Origin: Escherichia phage vB_EcoM_ACG-C40
Sequence record: NC_019399.1
Length of the DNA: 64,000 nt
Strand: one strand, 5' to 3'
The position numbers and the translations under genes are program-made. Shown here piece by piece: positions 4,414 through 55,000 of this stretch (its first letter is position 1; each line of letters begins with the position of its first letter). Below the pieces are notes generated by a model. It did no database searches, was not told where the DNA came from, and saw only the letters and a list, made by a program, of their open reading frames with translations.

Positions 4414-4652
4414 TGGAAGGTTTAATTGAAGCTATTAAATCAAACGACCTCGTAGCCGCTCGTAAATTATTTGCTGAAGCCATGGCTGCAAGAACGACTG
4501 ATTTAATTAAAGAAGAAAAAATCGCTATCGCTCGTAATTTCTTAATCGAAGGTGAAGAACCTGATGACGAGGATGATGACGAAGACGAAGATAGTGATGA
4601 TAAAGACGACAAAAAAGACAAAGACTCTGACGAAGACGAGGATGATGAATAA
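4413..4652 (+). CDS. 67: Prohead core protein gp67 with acidic C-terminal tail
   Basis: 79-aa ORF ending in a long D/E run; ATGA overlap with gene 20 stop; T4 synteny. Confidence 0.8.
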
Positions 4653-5077
4653 TGCTTCTGATCCCTGAAACTCATGAATTAGTTCTCGAGAATGTCGAAG
4701 CACTTATTCCTGAAGCACAGGGTCGCTTTGACGAATTGTCTTCTGCTTTAAATAAAGACGATATAAATACAATTGTCGAGAATATGCTTGATGATGAAAC
4801 TGATTTAGCGGTTGCATTAGCTTCTATTAATGAAAATATGCCGTTAAATGAATTTATCGTTAAACATGTTTCTGCCCGTGGTGAAATTACTCGCACTAAA
4901 GATCGCAAAACCCGCGAACGTAATGCATTTCAAACTACCGGGTTGTCTAAAGCAAAACGTAGACAAATTGCTCGTAAAGCTACCAAAACGAAGATTGCCA
5001 ATCCAGCAGGTCAATCTCGTGCTCAGCGTAAGCGTAAAAAAGCTCTTAAACGCCGTAAGGCATTAGGATTAAGCTAA
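4652..5077 (+). CDS. 68: Prohead core protein gp68
   Basis: 141-aa ORF, basic C-terminus, position between 67 and 21. Confidence 0.8.
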
Positions 5078-5745: not shown

Positions 5746-6555
5746 ATGCTTAAAGAACAACTGATTGCTGAAGCGCAAAAAATTGATGCTTCCGTTGCTC
5801 TTGATAGTATTTTCGAATCAGTTAATATTTCTCCGGAAGCAAAAGAAACTTTCGGCACTGTATTCGAAGCTACCGTCAAGCAGCACGCCGTTAAATTAGC
5901 TGAATCTCATATCGCTAAAATTGCTGAAAAAGCAGAAGAAGAAGTAGAAAAAAATAAAGAAGAAGCAGAAGAAAAAGCTGAGAAGAAAATCGCTGAGCAA
6001 GCTTCTAAATTCCTTGACCATCTTGCAAAAGAATGGCTCACTGAAAATAAATTAGCAGTAGATAAAGGTATCAAAGCCGAACTGTTTGAATCCATGCTTG
6101 GTGGATTGAAAGAGCTCTTCGTTGAACACAACGTTGTTGTTCCAGAAGAATCAGTTGATGTTGTAGCTGAAATGGAAGAAGAACTGCAAGAACATAAAGA
6201 AGAATCAGCTCGTCTGTTCGAAGAACTCAATAAGCGTGACGCATATATCAATTATGTGCAGCGTGAAGTGGCATTGAGCGAAAGTACTAAAGATCTGACT
6301 GAGTCTCAAAAAGAAAAAGTCTCTGCTCTGGTCGAAGGTATGGATTATTCAGATGCATTCTCAAGTAAATTGAGTGCAATCGTAGAAATGGTGAAGAAAT
6401 CTAATAAAGATGAAAGCACTATTACTGAGAGTATAAATACTCCTGATACTGAAGCAGCCGGACTGAATTTCGTCACTGAAGCTGTAGAAGATAAATCTGC
6501 ACAAGGTGCAGAAGATATTGTAAGTGTATATGCGAAAGTCGCATCTCGTTTCTAA
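5746..6555 (+). CDS. 22: Major prohead scaffolding core protein gp22
   Basis: 269-aa acidic coiled-coil-like ORF, matches T4 gp22 length and position. Confidence 0.9.
   Translation: MLKEQLIAEAQKIDASVALDSIFESVNISPEAKETFGTVFEATVKQHAVKLAESHIAKIAEKAEEEVEKNKEEAEEKAEKKIAEQASKFLDHLAKEWLTENKLAVDKGIKAELFESMLGGLKELFVEHNVVVPEESVDVVAEMEEELQEHKEESARLFEELNKRDAYINYVQREVALSESTKDLTESQKEKVSALVEGMDYSDAFSSKLSAIVEMVKKSNKDESTITESINTPDTEAAGLNFVTEAVEDKSAQGAEDIVSVYAKVASRF
6432..6439 (+). promoter_or_regulatory. Late promoter TATAAATA inside gene 22, upstream of gene 23
   Basis: Exact TATAAATA about 135 nt upstream of the gene 23 start. Confidence 0.5.
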
Positions 6556-6573
6556 TTTTAAAGGTTAACACAA

Positions 6574-8133
6574 ATGACTATCAAAACTAAAGCTGAACTT
6601 TTGAACAAATGGAAGCCATTACTGGAAGGTGAAGGTTTACCGGAAATTGCTAATAGCAAACAAGCGATTATCGCTAAAATCTTTGAAAACCAGGAAAAAG
6701 ATTTCCAGACAGCTCCGGAATATAAAGACGAAAAAATTGCTCAGGCATTCGGTTCTTTCTTAACAGAAGCTGAAATCGGTGGTGACCACGGTTACAATGC
6801 TACCAACATCGCTGCAGGTCAGACTTCTGGAGCAGTAACTCAGATTGGCCCAGCTGTTATGGGTATGGTACGTCGTGCTATTCCTAACCTGATTGCTTTC
6901 GATATTTGTGGTGTTCAGCCAATGAACAGCCCGACTGGCCAGGTATTCGCACTGCGCGCAGTATATGGTAAAGACCCAATCGCTTCCGGTGCTAAAGAAG
7001 CATTCCACCCAATGTATGGTCCAGATGCAATGTTCTCTGGTCAGGGTGCTGCTAAGAAATTCCCAGCTCTGGCTGCTAGCACACAAACCACAGTAGGTGA
7101 TATCTATACTCACTTCTTCCAGGACACTGGTACTGTGTATCTGCAAGCTTCTGCTAAAGTAACAATTAGCGCAACTGACGCAGCTAAATTAGATGCTGAA
7201 ATTAAGAAACAAATGGAAGCTGGTGTACTGGTAGAAATCGCTGAAGGTATGGCTACTTCTATCGCTGAACTCCAGGAAGGTTTCAATGGTTCTACCGATA
7301 ACCCATGGAATGAAATGGGCTTCCGTATCGATAAGCAAGTTATCGAAGCTAAATCTCGTCAGCTGAAAGCTGCTTACTCTATCGAATTAGCACAGGACCT
7401 CCGCGCTGTTCACGGTATGGATGCTGATGCTGAACTGTCTGGCATTCTGGCTACAGAAATTATGTTGGAAATCAACCGCGAAGTTGTTGATTGGATTAAC
7501 TACTCAGCTCAGGTTGGTAAATCTGGTATGACCCTGACTCCGGGTTCTAAAGCTGGTGTATTTGACTTCCAGGACCCAATCGATATTCGTGGTGCTCGCT
7601 GGGCAGGTGAATCCTTTAAAGCTCTGTTGTTCCAGATTGACAAAGAAGCAGTTGAAATTGCTCGTCAGACTGGTCGCGGCGAAGGCAACTTCATTATCGC
7701 TTCCCGTAACGTAGTTAACGTTCTGGCTTCAGTTGATACCGGCATTTCTTATGCTGCACAGGGTCTGGCTACCGGCTTTAACACTGATACTACCAAGTCA
7801 GTATTTGCCGGTGTTCTGGGCGGTAAATACCGTGTATATATCGACCAGTATGCTAAACAGGATTATTTCACTGTAGGTTATAAAGGTCCGAACGAAATGG
7901 ATGCTGGTATTTACTATGCTCCATATGTAGCTCTGACTCCGCTGCGTGGTTCCGATCCGAAGAACTTCCAACCGGTAATGGGATTCAAAACTCGTTACGG
8001 TATCGGTATCAACCCATTTGCAGAATCCGCTGCTCAGGCTCCGGCTTCTCGCATCCAGAGCGGTATGCCTTCTATTCTGAATAGCCTTGGTAAAAACGCT
8101 TACTTCCGCCGTGTATATGTTAAAGGTATCTAA
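6574..8133 (+). CDS. 23: Major capsid protein gp23
   Basis: 519-aa ORF starting MTIKTKAELLNKWKPLLEGEGLPEIANSKQ, near-identical to recalled T4 gp23 (521 aa). Confidence 0.97.
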   Translation: MTIKTKAELLNKWKPLLEGEGLPEIANSKQAIIAKIFENQEKDFQTAPEYKDEKIAQAFGSFLTEAEIGGDHGYNATNIAAGQTSGAVTQIGPAVMGMVRRAIPNLIAFDICGVQPMNSPTGQVFALRAVYGKDPIASGAKEAFHPMYGPDAMFSGQGAAKKFPALAASTQTTVGDIYTHFFQDTGTVYLQASAKVTISATDAAKLDAEIKKQMEAGVLVEIAEGMATSIAELQEGFNGSTDNPWNEMGFRIDKQVIEAKSRQLKAAYSIELAQDLRAVHGMDADAELSGILATEIMLEINREVVDWINYSAQVGKSGMTLTPGSKAGVFDFQDPIDIRGARWAGESFKALLFQIDKEAVEIARQTGRGEGNFIIASRNVVNVLASVDTGISYAAQGLATGFNTDTTKSVFAGVLGGKYRVYIDQYAKQDYFTVGYKGPNEMDAGIYYAPYVALTPLRGSDPKNFQPVMGFKTRYGIGINPFAESAAQAPASRIQSGMPSILNSLGKNAYFRRVYVKGI

Positions 8134-23376: not shown

Positions 23377-24341
23377 TGTATTCTTTAGAGGAATTTAATA
23401 ATCAAGCAATAAACGCAGATTTCCAACGTAATAATATGTTCAGCTGTGTTTTTGCTACAACTCCATCAACTAAAAGCTCTTCGTTGATAAGTTCAATTAG
23501 CAACTTTTCTTATAATAACTTGGGCCTAAATTCAGATTGGTTAGGATTAACTCAAGGCGATATTAATCAGGGAATTACTACGCTAATTACAGCTGGCACA
23601 CAAAAACTGATAAGAAAATCAGGGGTTAGTAAATATCTTATTGGTGCCATGAGTCAACGTACAGTTCAAAGTTTATTAGGCTCATTTACAGTTGGTACAT
23701 ATTTAATTGACTTCTTTAACATGGCATATAACTCATCTGGATTGATGATATACTCTGTAAAAATGCCAGAGAATAGATTATCCTATGAAACTGACTGGAA
23801 CTATAATTCTCCTAATATTCGTATAACTGGGAGAGAATTAGACCCTTTGGTTATTTCATTCAGAATGGATTCAGAAGCTTGTAACTATCGTGCAATGCAA
23901 GACTGGGTTAACGCTGTTCAAGACCCAGTAACTGGATTGCGTGCTTTGCCGCAAGATGTCGAGGCAGATATTCAGGTTAATCTTCATTCTCGCAATGGAT
24001 TACCACATACTGCGGTGATGTTCACTGGATGCATTCCAGTGTCCGTAAGCGCTCCTGAGTTATCATATGATGGAGATAACCAAATAACTACATTTGATGT
24101 TACTTTTGCGTATAGAGTGATGCAGGCTGGAGCAGTTGATAGACAAGCTGCCCTTGAATGGCTTGAATCTGCTACTATAAATGGTATTCAAAGCGTTCTC
24201 GGAAATAGTGGAGGTGTTACTGGACTATCTAATTCGCTTTCACGACTTAGTAGATTAGGGGGAACTGCAGGAAGCATTTCAAATATTAATACTATGACAG
24301 GAATTGTCAATTCGCAGAGTAAAATATTAGGAGCAATATAA
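23376..24341 (+). CDS. 54: Baseplate tail tube initiator gp54
   Basis: 321-aa ORF, tube-protein-like, T4 position. Confidence 0.9.
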   Translation: MYSLEEFNNQAINADFQRNNMFSCVFATTPSTKSSSLISSISNFSYNNLGLNSDWLGLTQGDINQGITTLITAGTQKLIRKSGVSKYLIGAMSQRTVQSLLGSFTVGTYLIDFFNMAYNSSGLMIYSVKMPENRLSYETDWNYNSPNIRITGRELDPLVISFRMDSEACNYRAMQDWVNAVQDPVTGLRALPQDVEADIQVNLHSRNGLPHTAVMFTGCIPVSVSAPELSYDGDNQITTFDVTFAYRVMQAGAVDRQAALEWLESATINGIQSVLGNSGGVTGLSNSLSRLSRLGGTAGSISNINTMTGIVNSQSKILGAI

Positions 24342-24345
24342 CAAT

Positions 24346-24374
24346 GGGGACCTTTCGGTCCCCATATTTTTATT
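24346..24374. terminator. Bidirectional rho-independent terminator between gene 54 and the convergent minus-strand ORF
   Basis: GGGGACC-TTTC-GGTCCCC hairpin with T-rich flanks. Confidence 0.7.
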
Positions 24375-24660
24375 TACGGAATGAAATGAAAGCAGAAACT
24401 GAAGCAACTAAACTGTCTTCAATATAAACTTCAATTTTTACCGGAGCTTCTGACTCAAATTTACCTGTTACTACACCTTGGAAAATACTTTCAGTCTGTT
24501 CTGGTTTTGAAAAATTTTCAGAAGGAAAAATTCCGAACTTTTTATCTGTTCCAAAAATTTTAATAAATTCATCGTAAACTGCTTCATTAAAAGCATTATC
24601 AGCAGGAATAACGCCTTCAACGACGAGCTCTTGGCCTAAAAAGCGTAAAGAAGATTTCAT
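24370..24660 (-). CDS. Hypothetical protein (alt.-3-like position)
   Basis: 96-aa ORF; GAGGAA Shine-Dalgarno inside the upstream 53-bp repeat element. Confidence 0.6.
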   Translation of the reverse strand: MKSSLRFLGQELVVEGVIPADNAFNEAVYDEFIKIFGTDKKFGIFPSENFSKPEQTESIFQGVVTGKFESEAPVKIEVYIEDSLVASVSAFISFRK

Positions 24661-24668
24661 TTTGTGTT

Positions 24669-24721
24669 CCTCATGTTATGTCAGTAAGACTACTGTAACA
24701 CAACACGAGGGACTTGTAAAC
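24669..24721 (-). promoter_or_regulatory. Early-promoter-like cassette with inverted repeat (copy 1 of a 53-bp repeat)
   Basis: Minus strand reads GTTTAC-18 nt-TACAGT, then CATGAGG Shine-Dalgarno region; 53/53 identical to 38376-38428. Confidence 0.6.
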
Positions 24722-25078
24722 TACATTTTGAACTTTTTAGTACGCGTAATAGGCATGCGTCGATTTTATACTGTTTCATTGTTTGAAGAGCAGTATCAAA
24801 AACAGCATTAATGACACCAATTGGATTTCCACCCAAGTTTTTAAGCTTAACTAATGATAGTTTCTCATTAACACCTATCATTACGATATGCATCATTTTG
24901 TCGCCTGGTTTAACGTTTTATCTGTATCACCGCCAGAGGTGTATGTACAAAATCTAAATCCAGGAAGCACGCTTTCTTCGCCGGCTTGAATAGCAAAAAT
25001 TTGTGGTATTTTATGCTTAGGATTTAAGTTAACAACCGGCGCCGAAGCGCCGTCAAATAATTATGTAATAAGTTCCAT
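24690..25078 (-). pseudogene. Degenerate duplicate of the alt 5' coding region
   Basis: Begins ATGGAACTTATTACATAA (MELIT*), continues with alt-like sequence (...NLNPKHKIPQIF...GFRFCTYTSGGDT...), 1-nt deletion, then a 68-aa ORF 24690..24896 (MMHIV...QYKIDACLLRVLKS) paralogous to Alt residues about 64-130. Confidence 0.7.
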
Positions 25079-25081
25079 GAT

Positions 25082-27133
25082 TTATCCTTGAACGAACTTG
25101 TAAGGCATGTTTGCAATATCTATGCAAGACGCAATAATTCCAAGAGATGATTCTACTTTCTGTTTAACATTTGATGAAACAAATGATGCAAAGTCAACTC
25201 TGTCTTCTATATCACCTGTCATTGTAACCAATTCACCAGTTTCCATTAAATGGTCTCCGTCATAGATTACCGATTCGGTGAGTTCTTCTGTGGTCATAAC
25301 TTCAGCTTGAATAAGCTTGTTGTTAGTTCTAACTGTTCCATCGTTGTAAGATGCATCGGTTATTTTATTAACTTTGACCATTAATCCACGTGGCAAAATG
25401 ACTTCCATTTCATTTGAAGGCGCTAAACTTCCACCGGGTAAAACAACATTAACCTTATCAGCCCCAGTAATAACCCATCCAATTCCAACTAAATTATCGC
25501 TAGAATTTACTAGTCCTTCATCAGTTTTATCAATAGAAACACTTAGACGCTTTTCGTCTGGTAAAACACCCACAGATGAATCAGTCATCCAAGTACCAAA
25601 AATATTTGGATATAATGATGTTGACACAAAGTTTCTAAAATAAAAAACTCGATTTTTTACCATTGCTTCGTATATTGAAGGTAACATTCGTTGTGAACGA
25701 TACAAAGTAATACCTTTTGGTAATCGTTCACCATTTTTAAAGGCTGAATCTAAATTATCAATGGCTTGTTCTATTTCAGGTGCTGTTAAAATACTTGTAC
25801 GCTCATCTGGATTATATAATCCCAAAAGAGCATTATTTATGTCTACATATCCTGAACCTACGTATTCACGAATTCCGCGTTTTTGTGCTGGTGTGTATTT
25901 AGATGAATCTTTATTTTCGACTATAGGATGTAATGACCATCCAGCGGTAAGAGCATATCCACGTAATTCTCTTCGAATAATCTTTGTTTTTATTGCATTC
26001 CAAGAATTTTGTACTAACTCATTTGCAGCATCTTGGTTTAAATGCGAATGTCTGTTAATATTTCTTTCAAACCAAGCACCTTTATATTTTTCTAAAGTAT
26101 CATCGACGATAGAAGCAATAGTTTCTAAAGTTTTTATTGAAGTAATAGATTCTTTTCGTAATTTTTCTAAAGCTTTATTTTTTATTTCTGCATTAATAAT
26201 GGATTCTTTATCTTCAGGAATTATAGAAGCTTCTCTGAATGCCATCCCAGCTGTAACACTGCTAAGAGCATTCTCTAGTGCAAATCCTGAAGTAGAAATT
26301 ACCGTTAATTCATTAGAATCAGAAATTAAAGGAGCGTCCGCTGGTTTATTTAATTCTGCCGCTGAAGCCTCAAATTTTTGAAACATCGGTGTTTCAAATC
26401 TAGAAGATTCCAACGACTGACTTTGTGCAATTGCTCTACGGGAAATTTTAACTTTAACGATTACAGCTTGATCAGAACGTTTATCATTTTCTTGTGCAAT
26501 AGATGCTGCAATTGCCTCATTTTTAGTTACTTGAGCTCCAGTATCTTTATTGATATAAACATCACCGACCTTCGATTCAACTTTAGTAAAGAGCTCGGTA
26601 CTAATTTCCGGAACCCCTGGAATGTCTTCTAGTGATACATTTTTGCGATGTATAAGAATATATGCATACTTTTTATCATAATCCCAGAGTTCCTTAAGAA
26701 GGACGTATCTGCCACCTGAACGACTACGGATAAGTCTATCAGCAATAACTTGAATTTGTCGAGCTTGACCAGCGGTTTTAGACTTAAGAATACGGAGCAT
26801 ACAGGCATCAATTTTATACTGACGCATCGTTTGCATTGCAACAGTAAAAACCGAATTGATATAATTAATTGGGCTTGGACCAAGACCTTTCAATTTAGCA
26901 ATTGAACCTTTAGCGGTTAATGTAAAAGGAACAATATGCATCATTTTATCGCCCATCTTTAAATCACGATTAGTATCACCTCCAGATGTATAGGTACATA
27001 AACGAAAGCCTGGTTGTTCAATTGCGTCATCAACATGAACTGAAAAAATTTGCGGTATTTTCTTCTTTGGATTTAAGTTTGTAATCGGAAGAGTAGTATC
27101 TTCGTCAAATAATTCTGTAATTAGTTCCATCAT
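25082..27133 (-). CDS. alt: Alt ADP-ribosyltransferase (virion-packaged)
   Basis: 683-aa ORF starting MMELITELFDEDTTLPITNLNPKKK, matches recalled T4 Alt. Confidence 0.9.
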   Translation of the reverse strand: MMELITELFDEDTTLPITNLNPKKKIPQIFSVHVDDAIEQPGFRLCTYTSGGDTNRDLKMGDKMMHIVPFTLTAKGSIAKLKGLGPSPINYINSVFTVAMQTMRQYKIDACMLRILKSKTAGQARQIQVIADRLIRSRSGGRYVLLKELWDYDKKYAYILIHRKNVSLEDIPGVPEISTELFTKVESKVGDVYINKDTGAQVTKNEAIAASIAQENDKRSDQAVIVKVKISRRAIAQSQSLESSRFETPMFQKFEASAAELNKPADAPLISDSNELTVISTSGFALENALSSVTAGMAFREASIIPEDKESIINAEIKNKALEKLRKESITSIKTLETIASIVDDTLEKYKGAWFERNINRHSHLNQDAANELVQNSWNAIKTKIIRRELRGYALTAGWSLHPIVENKDSSKYTPAQKRGIREYVGSGYVDINNALLGLYNPDERTSILTAPEIEQAIDNLDSAFKNGERLPKGITLYRSQRMLPSIYEAMVKNRVFYFRNFVSTSLYPNIFGTWMTDSSVGVLPDEKRLSVSIDKTDEGLVNSSDNLVGIGWVITGADKVNVVLPGGSLAPSNEMEVILPRGLMVKVNKITDASYNDGTVRTNNKLIQAEVMTTEELTESVIYDGDHLMETGELVTMTGDIEDRVDFASFVSSNVKQKVESSLGIIASCIDIANMPYKFVQG

Positions 27134-27153: not shown

Positions 27154-27161
27154 TATTTATA
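27154..27161 (-). promoter_or_regulatory. Late promoter TATAAATA for alt
   Basis: Minus-strand TATAAATA about 20 nt upstream of the alt start. Confidence 0.55.
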
Positions 27162-27166
27162 AAATT

Positions 27167-27184
27167 AAAGGCCCGAAGGCCTTT
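27167..27184 (-). terminator. Terminator hairpin upstream of the alt promoter
   Basis: AAAGGCC-TTCG-GGCCTTT on minus strand followed by AATTTTAT. Confidence 0.55.
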
Positions 27185-27371
27185 AGTAATCTAGTGGTAA
27201 GAGAGTACGATATATTTCAAACTTTGGTCCTTTTTCATAGGCATCAAATGCTTCTGTGAATTTATTATAAGCGTATGCATCTACAAATTCGAGAATGACT
27301 TGTGATACAGAAGTAGAAACATCTCCACCTTCTTTTTGAGCAATGACAATTGTTTCTAAGTAAGCTTTCAT
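27183..27371 (-). CDS. Hypothetical small protein
   Basis: 62-aa ORF between ligase and alt; start overlaps ligase stop. Confidence 0.5.
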   Translation of the reverse strand: MKAYLETIVIAQKEGGDVSTSVSQVILEFVDAYAYNKFTEAFDAYEKGPKFEIYRTLLPLDY

Positions 27372-28831
27372 AAACCAGTTACCTCATGAAAATCACCAAA
27401 TACATCTTCGAACGTATTAGCTTTAGTTTTATCTTCGCGTAAACGAATCGCAATCGGAAGAAATAATTTAACGTAATCAGTGCGGCCATCAGATTTTAAC
27501 CAACCGTTGCATTCGCACTCTAGAATTTTTCCAATATAATAATTTTGGTTTTCCATAATGCGAGTACGGTCAAGTTCATGCGATTTTACACCGGCTTTAT
27601 CTTTTAAGCCTGAACCAGCATTTACTTTAATTTTTCCACACTCTGACTCAAGAATAAATCCGCCTGCTTTAGTAGGGTCTTTACGGTGAGGATAAATTCC
27701 TACAATTTTTAAATCAACATCAATTACTTCTTTAAATTTATAGAGATTTTTTGAACGGGCATTTTCCCATAACCCATCAACGTTTTTGAGAATAATACCT
27801 TCAAGACCTTGGTCAATATACTTTTTGTAAATTACCTTAGCTTCATCTAGGTTATTTACTACCTGGTTTTCAATTAAAATTACTTTATCACAGCCTGATG
27901 TCATTTGTTCTAGTTTAGAAAAACGTACATCATACTTTAAACGAAATGCAGGAAGACCATATATTTCTACTAATGGAACATAATCCCAGACCTGAAACTT
28001 CATGCATTGAGCTTCTTTTTCTGAAATAGTTCCCTTTAAAGATTTATTAGCGATTCCATTAGAAGCAGTACGTGATTCAGCTACTTCGGCGAATTCTTTA
28101 GCTTTACTAATTTCAGGATAAGCATCAAAAAGAAAATCTAGGCCTTCTGGCTCCTTTTTAACTTGCTCATGGTATACCAATTCGCCATCAATTAACACGC
28201 CTTCTGGATGAATCTGGCGGGCTTCAGCGGTCATTTTGATTAATTCTTCCTTAAGAAGATCTAATCCTAGATATTCATTACCGGCTCGTGATAAAAGACG
28301 AACATCATCTAATTCATCACCTCTGACTTCGGCAAAGCACCGAGCCCCATCAGCTTTTAACTGGGCAAAGGCTGGAAATTTGATATTCTTATTAATGCCT
28401 TTTTCATCATAAGAACTTGCAAGCATTTGAGGTTGTTCAGGAATTAAACCTGGCCAAACTTTGTTTGCAATAGATACTGAAGCACCACATTCAAGGTCTC
28501 GCATCATCACTCGACGCAAAACTTCAACATCATCTTTTTTACCGTCAGTAATATATCCAGTTAATTCCTCAATTGCTGCATTTCCAGTCAATTTCCGAGT
28601 AGCTAATGTGAATTCAATGAAGTCAAGCATATCGGTAAGAGTCAACATTCCAAAACTCTGGGTAGCAATACCAGGTTTAGGCCATTTCTTGATATAATAC
28701 TGCAGCCCACGAGAATAAGTCAGACGATATACTCGTTTAAGCAATTCATTATCTTTATTCTTTTCAAGAATTGCTTGCTTCTGCTTAGTTGAACCAATAG
28801 ATGCTATTTCGTTCAGAATTTTAAGAATCAT
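27368..28831 (-). CDS. 30: ATP-dependent DNA ligase gp30
   Basis: 487-aa ORF starting MILKILNEIASIGSTKQKQAILEKNKDNELLKRVYRLTYSRGLQYYIKKW, matches T4 DNA ligase. Confidence 0.95.
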   Translation of the reverse strand: MILKILNEIASIGSTKQKQAILEKNKDNELLKRVYRLTYSRGLQYYIKKWPKPGIATQSFGMLTLTDMLDFIEFTLATRKLTGNAAIEELTGYITDGKKDDVEVLRRVMMRDLECGASVSIANKVWPGLIPEQPQMLASSYDEKGINKNIKFPAFAQLKADGARCFAEVRGDELDDVRLLSRAGNEYLGLDLLKEELIKMTAEARQIHPEGVLIDGELVYHEQVKKEPEGLDFLFDAYPEISKAKEFAEVAESRTASNGIANKSLKGTISEKEAQCMKFQVWDYVPLVEIYGLPAFRLKYDVRFSKLEQMTSGCDKVILIENQVVNNLDEAKVIYKKYIDQGLEGIILKNVDGLWENARSKNLYKFKEVIDVDLKIVGIYPHRKDPTKAGGFILESECGKIKVNAGSGLKDKAGVKSHELDRTRIMENQNYYIGKILECECNGWLKSDGRTDYVKLFLPIAIRLREDKTKANTFEDVFGDFHEVTGL

Positions 28832-38366: not shown

Positions 38367-38375
38367 CATAAAGTC

Positions 38376-38428
38376 CCTCATGTTATGTCAGTAAGACTAC
38401 TGTAACACAACACGAGGGACTTGTAAAC
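38376..38428 (-). promoter_or_regulatory. Early-promoter-like cassette with inverted repeat (copy 2 of the 53-bp repeat)
   Basis: Identical 53-mer to 24669-24721; stem GTCCCTC/GAGGGAC perfect in this copy. Confidence 0.6.
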
Positions 38429-38431
38429 AAC

Positions 38432-52066: not shown

Positions 52067-55000
52067 ATGGCCGAGATTAAAAGAAAGTTCAGAGCAGAAG
52101 ATGGTCTGGACGCAGGTGGCGATAAAATAATCAACGTAGCTTTAGCTGATCGTACCGTAGGAACTGACGGTGTTAACGTTGATTACTTAATTCAAGAAAA
52201 CACAGTTCAGCAATATGATCCAACTCGTGGATATTTAAAAGATTTTGTAATCATTTATAATAATCGTTTTTGGGCAGCAACGGATAATATTCCAAAACCT
52301 GCTGGAAATTTTAATAGAATTCGTTGGAAAGCATTACGTACTGATGCCGTATATACAACCGTATCATCTGGACCATATCAATTAAAATCCGGAGAAGCAA
52401 TTTCAGTAGATACATCAGTTGGCAATGACATTGAGTTTACTTTACCATCTTCTCCGCTTAATGGAGAAACCGTAATAATTCAAGATATCGGTGGAAAACC
52501 TGGCATAAATCAGGTTAAAATAAATTCTTCAAATCAGAGTATTGTCAATTTTAGAGGTGAACAGGTACGTTCAGTTTTAATGACTCATCCAAAGTCACAG
52601 ATGGTATTCATTTTTAATAATCGTTTGTGGCAAATGTATATTGCTGATTATAGCAGAGAAGCTGCGATTGTTACTCCATCGACTGCGTATCAAGCACAAT
52701 CTAATGATTTTATCGTACGTAGATTTACTTCTGCTGCACCAATTAATGTTAAACTTCCGAGATTTGCTAATCATGGCGATATTATTAATTTCGTTGATTT
52801 AGATAAACTGAATCCACTTTATCATACAATTGTTACTACATACGATGAAACGACTTCAGTACAAGAAGTTGGAACTCATTCCATTGAAGGCCGTACATCG
52901 ATTAACGGTTTCTTGATGTTTGACGATAATGAGAAATTGTGGAGATTGTTTGACGGGGATAGTAAAGCACGTTTACGCATTATAACAACTAATTCAAATA
53001 TTCGTCCAAATGAAGAAGTCATGGTATTTGGCGCGAATAATAGAACAACCCAAACAATTGAACTTCAGCTTCCGACTGATATTTCTGTTGGTGATACTGT
53101 TAAAATTTCCATGAATTACATGAGAAAAGGACAAACAGTTAAAATCAAAGCTGCTGGTGAAGATAAAATTGCTTCTTCAGTTCAATTGCTGCAATTCCCA
53201 AAACGTTCAGAATATCCGCCTGAAGCTGAATGGGTAACAGTTCAAGAATTAGTTTTTAACGGTGAAACTAATTATGTTCCAGTTTTACAACTTGCTTATA
53301 TAGAAGATTCTGATGGAAAATACTGGGTTGTACAGCAAAACGTTCCAACTGTAGAAAGAGTAGACTCTTTAAATGCTTCTACTAGAGCAAGATTAGGCGT
53401 AATTGCTTTAGCTACGCAAGCTCAAGCAAATGCTGATTTAGAAAATTCTCCGCAAAAAGAATTGGCAATTACTCCAGAAACGTTAGCTAATCGTACTGCT
53501 ACAGAAACTCGCAGAGGTATCGCAAGAATAGCAACTACTGCTCAAGTAAATCAGAACACTACATTCTCTTTTGCTGATGACCTTATCATCACTCCTAAAA
53601 AGCTGAATGAAAGAACTGCTACAGAAACTCGCAGAGGTGTTGCTGAAATTGCTACGCAGCAGGAAACTAATACAGGTATCGATGATACTACAATCATCAC
53701 TCCTAAAAAGCTTCAAGCTCGTCAAGGTTCTGAATCATTATCTGGTATTGTAACTTTTGTATCTACCGCAGGAGCTACTCCAGCTTCTAGTCGTGAATTA
53801 AATGGTACGAATGTTTATAATAAAAACACTAATAATTTAGTTGTTTCACCTAAAGCTTTGGATCAGTATAAAGCTACTCCAACGCAACAAGGCGCAGTAA
53901 TTTTAGCAGTTGAAAGTGAAGTAATTGCTGGACAAAGCCAAGAAGGATGGGCAAATGCGGTTGTAACGCCAGAAACGTTACATAAAAAGACATCAACTGA
54001 TGGAAGAATTGGTTTAATTGAAATTGCTACGCAAAGTGAAGTTAATACAGGAACTGACTATACTCGTGCAGTCACTCCTAAAACTTTAAATGACCGTAGA
54101 GCAACTGAAAGTTTAAGTGGTATAGCTGAAATTGCTACGCAAGTTGAATTCGACGCAGGCGTCGACGATACTCGTATCTCTACACCATTAAAAATTAAAA
54201 CCAGATTTAATAGTACTGATCGTACTTCTGTTGTTGCTCTATCTGGATTAGTTGAATCAGGAACTCTCTGGGACCATTATACCCTTAATATTCTTGAAGC
54301 AAATGAGACACAGCGTGGTACACTTCGTGTAGCTACACAAGTTGAAGCTGCTGCAGGAACATTAGATAATGTTTTAATAACTCCTAAAAAGCTTTTAGGT
54401 ACTAAATCTACCGAATCGCAAGAAGGTGTTATTAAAGTTGCAACTCAGTCTGAAACTGTGACTGGAACGTCAGCAAATACTGCTGTATCTCCAAAAAATT
54501 TAAAATGGATTGTGCAGAGTGAACCTACTTGGGCAGCTACTACTGCGATAAGAGGTTTTGTTAAAACTTCATCTGGTTCAATTACATTCGTTGGTAATGA
54601 TACAGTCGGTTCTACACAAGATTTAGAACTGTATGAGAAAAATAGCTATGCAGTATCACCATATGAATTAAACCGTGTATTAGCAAATTATCTGCCGTTA
54701 AAAGCAAAAGCTGTAGATAGTAATTTATTGGATGGTCTAGATTCATCTCAGTTCATTCGTAGGGATATTGCACAGACGGTTAATGGTTCACTAACCTTAA
54801 CCCAACAAACGAATCTGAGTGCCCCTCTTGTATCATCTAGTACTGCTACGTTTGGTGGTTCAGTTTCGGCAAATAGTGTACTAACTATTTCTAATACTGG
54901 AACAGAAACTCATCTGATTTTTGAGAAAGGACCTCAAACTGGAACTAACCAAGCACAGACGGTGACTATTAGAGTGTGGGGTAATCAATTTAGTGGGGAA

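Follow-up and report, generated by a model that had tools for sequence, protein, structure and literature searches.

The DNA analysed here (the window) is a stretch of 64,000 nt from the genome of Escherichia phage vB_EcoM_ACG-C40 (NC_019399.1), a T4-type phage of the genus Tequatrovirus. Over positions 24300-25400 it is 97.5% identical to T4 and at most 98.4% identical to other isolates. The segment under study lies between an intact alt gene, encoding an ADP-ribosyltransferase, and an intact alt.-3 gene downstream, and the order 30 / alt.1 / alt / remnant / alt.-3 / 54 is the same in the window and in T4. Alt carries an ADPrib_exo_Tox domain (PF03496) at residues 375-615 (Pfam, E 1.4e-34), and T4 annotation begins the gene at its second ATG, at 27130, not at the first. 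Genes 54, 48 and 29 are encoded on the plus strand and converge upon the alt/alt.-3 block. In this analysis, "alt2" is the name that we use for a second full-length alt gene of related phages, of which the segment appears to be a remnant; coordinates of the relevant features are collected in Table 1.

Table 1. Features of the alt region and of the repeated cassette in the window
Feature	Position	Strand	Remarks
DNA ligase (gene 30)	27368-28831	-	
alt.1	27183-27371	-	
alt, intact ADP-ribosyltransferase gene	25082-27133	-	ORF of 683 aa from first ATG; PF03496 match
5' segment of putative alt2 pseudogene (T4 ORF alt.-1)	24893-25078	-	alt2 codons 1-55, then frameshifted tail
TAA nonsense, codon 6	25061-25063	-	G>T at 25063; GAA in T4, PP01 and RB33
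-1 frameshift	24916-24919	-	A4 where intact alt2 has A5; splits alt.-1 from alt.-2
68-codon ORF (T4 alt.-2)	24690-24896	-	ORF residues 1-56 = alt2 codons 61-116; then 13 codons
Putative deletion junction	24732-24740	-	Direct repeat of 9 nt, CTAAAAAGT, left in one copy
Last 11 nt of alt2 CDS	24721-24731	-	TCAAAATGTAG; includes original stop TAG (24721-24723)
53-nt cassette, copy 1 (alt2/alt.-3 intergenic)	24669-24721	-	Starts at G of old alt2 TAG
alt.-3 (DUF5498), intact, downstream of remnant	24370-24660	-	Pfam PF17602, E 5e-64
53-nt cassette, copy 2 (between rnlA and alc)	38376-38428	-	

Several candidate regulatory elements flank these genes. Between the convergent genes 54 and alt.-3 lies a 9-bp GC-rich palindrome with T runs on both strands (24344-24365), which looks like a bidirectional terminator and is so annotated in phage e11/2. 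Between alt.1 and alt, a GC-rich hairpin followed by a T run (27166-27185, minus strand) is terminator-like, and directly after it the sequence TATAAATA (27154-27161, minus strand) equals the T4 late-promoter consensus. The position of this motif upstream of alt would fit a late timing for Alt, a protein packaged in the phage particle. Ahead of the remnant there is no motif of this kind; the remnant starts 3 nt past the alt stop and must be co-transcribed with alt.

Three nucleotides past the alt stop (TAA, 25082-25084), the minus strand restarts as ATGGAACTTATTACA, with an ATG at 25076-25078; the minus-strand sequence that begins at this point is ATGGAACTTATTACATAA. The earlier note, made from the sequence alone, had described an alt-like start immediately after the alt stop and a TAA at its sixth codon, and both are present. 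In a blastn search of the whole window, 24690-25078 matched the 5' end of alt at 70.5% identity over 200 nt (E 2.4e-20), with an additional 59-nt piece. One further partner was significant, namely 35 nt at the second copy of the cassette (38397-38431), and there was no third. Against the window's own Alt, blastx aligned the segment in two pieces and two frames, to Alt residues 2-63 and 57-118 (joint E 5e-36). The similarity to alt is real and lies far above chance. In-frame homology to Alt stops at approximately residue 118; the 68-codon ORF that the note had reported is there, while the range that it assigned to this ORF (Alt residues of about 64-130) extends too far.

Profile searches gave a corresponding picture. 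T4 Alt.-1 matches PHROG 802 (Alt-like ART) at profile positions 2-60, and the 68-codon ORF covers positions 64-120 of the 674 in the same profile, in addition to matching PHROG 15247, the alt.-2 family (E 9e-50). No Pfam domain was found in the 68-aa ORF, and the PF03496 ART domain is absent from it, while Alt and the Alt2 protein of phage PP01 were positive in the same scan. The remnant aligns with T4 without gaps over 521 nt at 97.7% identity. Three ORFs on the plus strand (24662-24811, 24811-24957 and 24888-24989; all shorter than 50 aa) are unannotated in related records and were taken as chance ORFs. An Rfam scan of 24300-25200 returned no match at the remnant or the cassette, the sub-threshold ones being located around the terminator between gp54 and alt.-3.

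Comparison with phages that carry two alt genes, among them T2, T6, RB14, RB33, PP01 and AR1, places an intact gene at the same locus. In PP01, RB33, T2 and T6, alt2 is 2058 nt long (685 aa), is annotated as an Alt-like ADP-ribosyltransferase, and is situated between alt and alt.-3 with its start 3 nt past alt. Aligned from end to end, Alt and the Alt2 of PP01 agree at 41% of residues, and both contain PF03496, which occupies residues 416-620 in Alt2. The dN/dS ratio of alt2 is 0.03-0.05 in all six pairs among four alleles. These values point to strong purifying selection in intact carriers and thereby argue that alt2 is a real gene, since lost from the window's lineage. The intact gene has the same flanks as the window's remnant (the alt stop 3 nt upstream; cassette and alt.-3 downstream) and contains 1690 nt more than the window's dead copy, the PF03496 domain included.

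Over its first 348 nt, the remnant is approximately 95.5% (95-96%) identical to alt2 and only 67-70% identical to alt. When its N-terminus was reconstructed and used in a protein search, it gave a one-piece match at 95-97% identity in hundreds of Tequatrovirus genomes. The suggestion that the segment is the footprint of a largely removed alt paralogue is supported. To call it a tandem duplicate derived from the 5' end of alt is not, since the fragment is closest to the alt2 of PP01 and RB33 and keeps the last 20 nt of that gene. A related scheme, in which the first ~390 nt of the phage's own alt were copied in tandem and then decayed, would account for the alt-like character of the fragment and is the one described in the older T4 RefSeq note, according to which the beginning of alt was duplicated long ago and a stop codon came into the copy. 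It has next to no probability: its predicted parent is much the more distant of the two genes, the retained alt2 3' end past the junction is refuting evidence in the form of a split alignment to intact alt2, and the later annotation of T4T has already replaced this reading. A 3-nt gap relative to alt likewise proves to be an alt2 character, as it separates Alt from Alt2 in intact genes also (DEDTTLP in Alt, D-GASAP in Alt2). The 3-nt indel that the earlier note had listed is therefore a difference between paralogues and no sign of decay.

The site of the loss can be located to the nucleotide. Aligned with PP01 by blastn, window positions 25120-24600 (minus strand) give two matches, to 4459-4848 (95.6%) and 6539-6679 (95.0%), which overlap in the query by 9 nt, namely CTAAAAAGT. 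The remnant follows alt2 to codon 116 and resumes 20 nt ahead of the alt2 stop; the left repeat copy corresponds to alt2 codons 114-116, and the right copy lies 20 nt before the stop. In RB33 (L004) the repeat is found 9/9 at both breakpoints (4840-4848 and 6539-6547), and in PP01 the left site agrees at 8/9 positions. The difference between the alleles amounts to 1699 bp, made up of the 1690 nt that separate the repeats plus one of the repeats itself; it is not a multiple of three and includes the whole ART domain of alt2. Because the repeat copies stand in different reading frames, the residual ORF continues past the old alt2 stop as SKCSLQVPRVVLQ. These last 13 codons consist of the out-of-frame alt2 3' end and the intergenic cassette: after ...LRVLKS, the ORF crosses the old stop and ends at a TAG (24690-24692) in the top of the intergenic hairpin.

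This junction is shared. A 76-nt query spanning it is 100% identical in T4 records, and the junction was present in 88 records; in intact-alt2 phages, the match to this query breaks in two at its positions 36-44, precisely the 9 bases of the repeat. The 1101-nt query (24300-25400) is covered to at least 80% by 89 records, and at least 80% of the 1690 nt absent from the window is contained in 402, with 485 records having the alt/alt2 boundary. Practically every genome thus carries either an intact alt2 or this one deletion. The deletion allele makes up ~18% of sequenced Tequatrovirus genomes.

Taken from the comparison of alleles, the loss of alt2 is best described as a microhomology deletion between direct repeats. 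Deletion between short direct repeats is the classic pattern for spontaneous deletions in T4, and the window fits it, having the repeat at both ends in the ancestral form and one copy left, with nothing unusual. For deletions of this type, PMC4122927 cites Albertini et al. 1982. Repeats of at least 9 nt are numerous in the gene, where 17 families occur in 2.3 kb. With so many in an AT-rich gene, the repeat explains the site of the deletion and not its retention, and the CTAAAAAGT deletion was one among many possible slippage events.

The earlier note had taken the end of the similarity, and hence the junction, to coincide with the 53-bp cassette and had the paralogue removed by recombination there. 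The junction lies instead at 24732-24740; it is followed by 10 nt of the alt2 3' end (24722-24731), and the cassette begins only at 24721. Cassettes of this general kind are known in T4-type phages as PeSL, or "promoter-early stem-loop", elements (Arbiol 2010, PMC2839356; Comeau 2014, PMC4122927), and have been proposed in the same papers to mediate indels. That proposal, together with a distance of just 10 nt from the junction, gives some appeal to the idea that homologous or PeSL-type recombination at the cassette excised the paralogue. The identity of the cassette copies in the window, PP01 and RB33, variant bases included, adds a hint of occasional gene conversion. We nevertheless regard a cassette-mediated loss as extremely unlikely. 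The repeat that forms the junction belongs to coding sequence and not to the cassette, and phages with intact alt2 have the cassette at the same spot. A genome has only two cassette copies, neither of them at the left breakpoint, and no cassette-like sequence was found at alt2 codons ~114-116 in the four intact alleles inspected. A crossover joining the two copies that do exist would cost the phage 13.7 kb, genes 30 and 31 included.

The distribution of the cassette leads to the same assessment. It directly follows the alt2 stop in PP01, RB33, T2 and T6, and it occurs twice per genome whether alt2 is intact or not (1002 places in 505 records). Given that it keeps its place beside an intact alt2 and is present in two copies in ~500 genomes, copy 1 is the ancestral alt2/alt.-3 intergenic region and not a deletion scar. 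In the window, the two copies are exactly alike over 53 nt and 97% identical over 59 nt (copy 1: 24666-24724). Copies are identical within the window (TACAGT in both; 24692-24697 and 38399-38404), within PP01 (TATAATAATC in both) and within RB33, and differ at 3-6 positions in T2, T6, Shigella phage sb1 and pSe_SNUABM_01. Concerted evolution of the copies was rejected on account of these 3-6 differences. The shared variants may reflect gene conversion, at most occasional, over a distance of 13.7-15.4 kb, or else recombination that brought in both copies together. Other repeats in the window comprise three diverged 68-nt direct repeats at 53468, 53588 and 54071 (span 53468-54138; 65-72% identity) and, at 4554-4648, repeated acidic codons (GAA/GAT/GAC) in a row; genes for structural proteins with repetitive interiors presumably account for both.

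Cassette copy 1 contains a motif resembling T4 early promoters, with a -35 element TTTACA (24715-24720), a 17-nt spacer and a -10 element TACAGT (24692-24697), the latter being TATAGT in T4 and TATAAT in PP01. A predicted 21-bp hairpin (24666-24713) overlaps this motif. Across the two copies, the hairpins have 21-23 bp, with folding energies of -24.6 and -33.1 kcal/mol and z-scores of -4.2 and -5.8. The apical pair is C:G in the window and U:A in T4. In a covariation test, 95% of cells were paired and 255 of 500 shuffles reached the observed score, there being little variation to test, so the hairpin is a thermodynamic prediction. On the alc side, the window reads GAGGGAC (38373-38375) where T4, PP01, RB33, T2 and T6 read GAGGAC; with one G more, the lower stem loses its bulged C and pairs perfectly, with the value of -33.1 kcal/mol.

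The 3' arm of the hairpin carries the Shine-Dalgarno (SD) sequence GAGG of the downstream gene, either alt.-3 (24669-24672) or alc. The SD would be sequestered in read-through RNA and free in RNA started from the internal promoter, an arrangement for which sequestration in read-through RNA of T4 e, soc, 49 and I-TevI provides precedent (PMC3014915). In T4, alt.-3 and alc yield early RNA and early protein (PMC9697503, Table S2), which fits with a new early unit beginning at the cassette if its promoter is used. The cassette resembles PeSLs in its early-promoter-like motif, stem-loop, downstream SD and repetition in the genome. Measured against the PST/T4 PeSL promoter consensus (TTTACW-N17-TAYWAT; PMC4122927), the -35 element and spacing agree and the -10 element TACAGT has one mismatch. 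The arrangement is different, however, as the stem-loop of a PeSL is upstream of the promoter, whereas the hairpin here overlaps the promoter-like motif and would sequester the SD.

Beyond the deletion, the remnant bears further lesions. An exact 61-mer with the codon-6 TAA was found in 43 phage records, T4 not being among the carriers, and this number identifies the TAA as a real allele and no sequencing error. The A4 frameshift is common to the window, T4, e11/2, BGP, F25 and pSe_SNUABM_01. The two lesions assort among deletion carriers: T4, e11/2 and BGP have the frameshift and no TAA, pSe_SNUABM_01 has both, FL12 (L007, 1201-1620) has the TAA and no frameshift, and F25 (L008, 2501-2920) has the frameshift, no TAA, and an extra -1 in the A run of the junction. 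This last change produces a 74-codon alt.-2 with a different tail, abutting alt.-3. Deletion carriers are 97-100% identical to one another, and it is visible that recombination with intact alleles has supplied their polymorphisms. Such an assortment would fit a neutral remnant reshuffled by recombination with other phages. Phage sb1 (L015) was left out as evidence on pseudogenization, given that its alt2, rnlA and several other genes are each split in two ORFs; the pattern points to numerous frameshift errors in the assembly and away from independent pseudogenization.

It could be argued that the remnant ORFs (alt.-2 in the window; alt.-1 and alt.-2 in T4) have been kept because they encode small working proteins that descend from the N-terminal part of Alt2. 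An open alt.-2 is seen in the window, T4, e11/2, BGP, FL12 and pSe_SNUABM_01, and of 8 deletion carriers inspected, 7 have this ORF intact; both ORFs have separate PHROGs families, and the region is transcribed in T4. We consider this very unlikely. With 2-3% divergence among carriers, the openness of alt.-2 means little, as chance would give the same result and the carriers are too alike for ORF retention to be informative. The nonsense codon closes alt.-1 in 43 records, the window included, and the F25 frameshift alters the C-terminal tail of alt.-2.

The signals for translation also argue against a functional product. In T4, the ATG of alt.-2 overlaps the stop of alt.-1 (ATGA), and coupled translation is conceivable. 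That coupling is lost in the window, where ribosomes loading at the good alt.-1 SD (AAGGA) would halt after five codons, 165 nt upstream of the 68-codon ORF, whose own SD is a weak AGG. In T4 omics data, the alt, alt.-1 and alt.-2 RNAs fall in the class "middle", and neither Alt.-1 nor Alt.-2 protein was detected (PMC9697503, Table S2), although non-detection in one proteome is weak evidence for peptides of ~60 aa. Expression of the 68-codon ORF in this phage, which the earlier note had allowed for, is unlikely in the light of the early alt.-1 stop, the AGG-only SD and the proteome in which neither peptide appears. We rate as very unlikely the more specific idea that the ORF (Alt2 residues ~61-116 with a new 13-residue tail) was co-opted as a small protein and that the deletion allele persists for this reason and not by drift. 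If true, such a protein might, for example, disturb how enzymes of the Alt family are packaged or act, those of co-infecting alt2 phages included.

The reading that we prefer, and hold with high confidence, is that the segment is a dead remnant of alt2, an ordinary pseudogene left by the loss of 1699 bp at a 9-nt repeat without involvement of the cassette. As the history is reconstructed here, alt2 is a tandem full-length paralogue of alt that Tequatrovirus had ancestrally and that most of its members retain intact. On the way to T4 and this phage, 1699 bp were lost between the CTAAAAAGT copies, probably by replication slippage or illegitimate recombination. The deletion took the whole ADP-ribosyltransferase domain and shifted the frame, and the residual ORF reads past the old stop into the intergenic hairpin as a result of that shift. 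Further disabling hits are, in no set order, a -1 slip in the A5 run and, in the sub-lineage to which the window belongs, the change of codon 6 from GAA to TAA. Judging from the T4 data, the remnant is presumably transcribed passively as a 3' extension of the alt mRNA and would yield no functional protein. The cassette is the pre-existing region of alt.-3 with the promoter-like motif, hairpin and SD, and had no part in the deletion.

The remnant as such is already known from T4, where alt.-1 and alt.-2 (NP_049810 and NP_049809; in T4T, ADJ39920 and ADJ39919) occupy the same locus and have the same 1699-bp junction and -1 frameshift as the window. Nolan et al. 2006 (PMC1524935) gave both as alt paralogues, and the T4T GenBank note states that they arise from a deletion and a further frame shift in the second copy of alt. 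The T4 alt.-1 is open, with 61 codons, whereas that of the window is closed at codon 6, an extra lesion and no sign of another origin; a handful of point differences also separate the two remnants. What is added here is the exact junction with its 9-nt microhomology, a census of the alleles, and the TAA allele. The junction is that of a textbook microhomology deletion and corrects the idea that a repeated cassette caused the loss. Most T-even phages keep a second ADP-ribosyltransferase of the Alt type, conserved and under selection, which is missing from T4 and this relative, and since T4 has no Alt2, work on phage ADP-ribosylation carried out in T4 only misses one enzyme.
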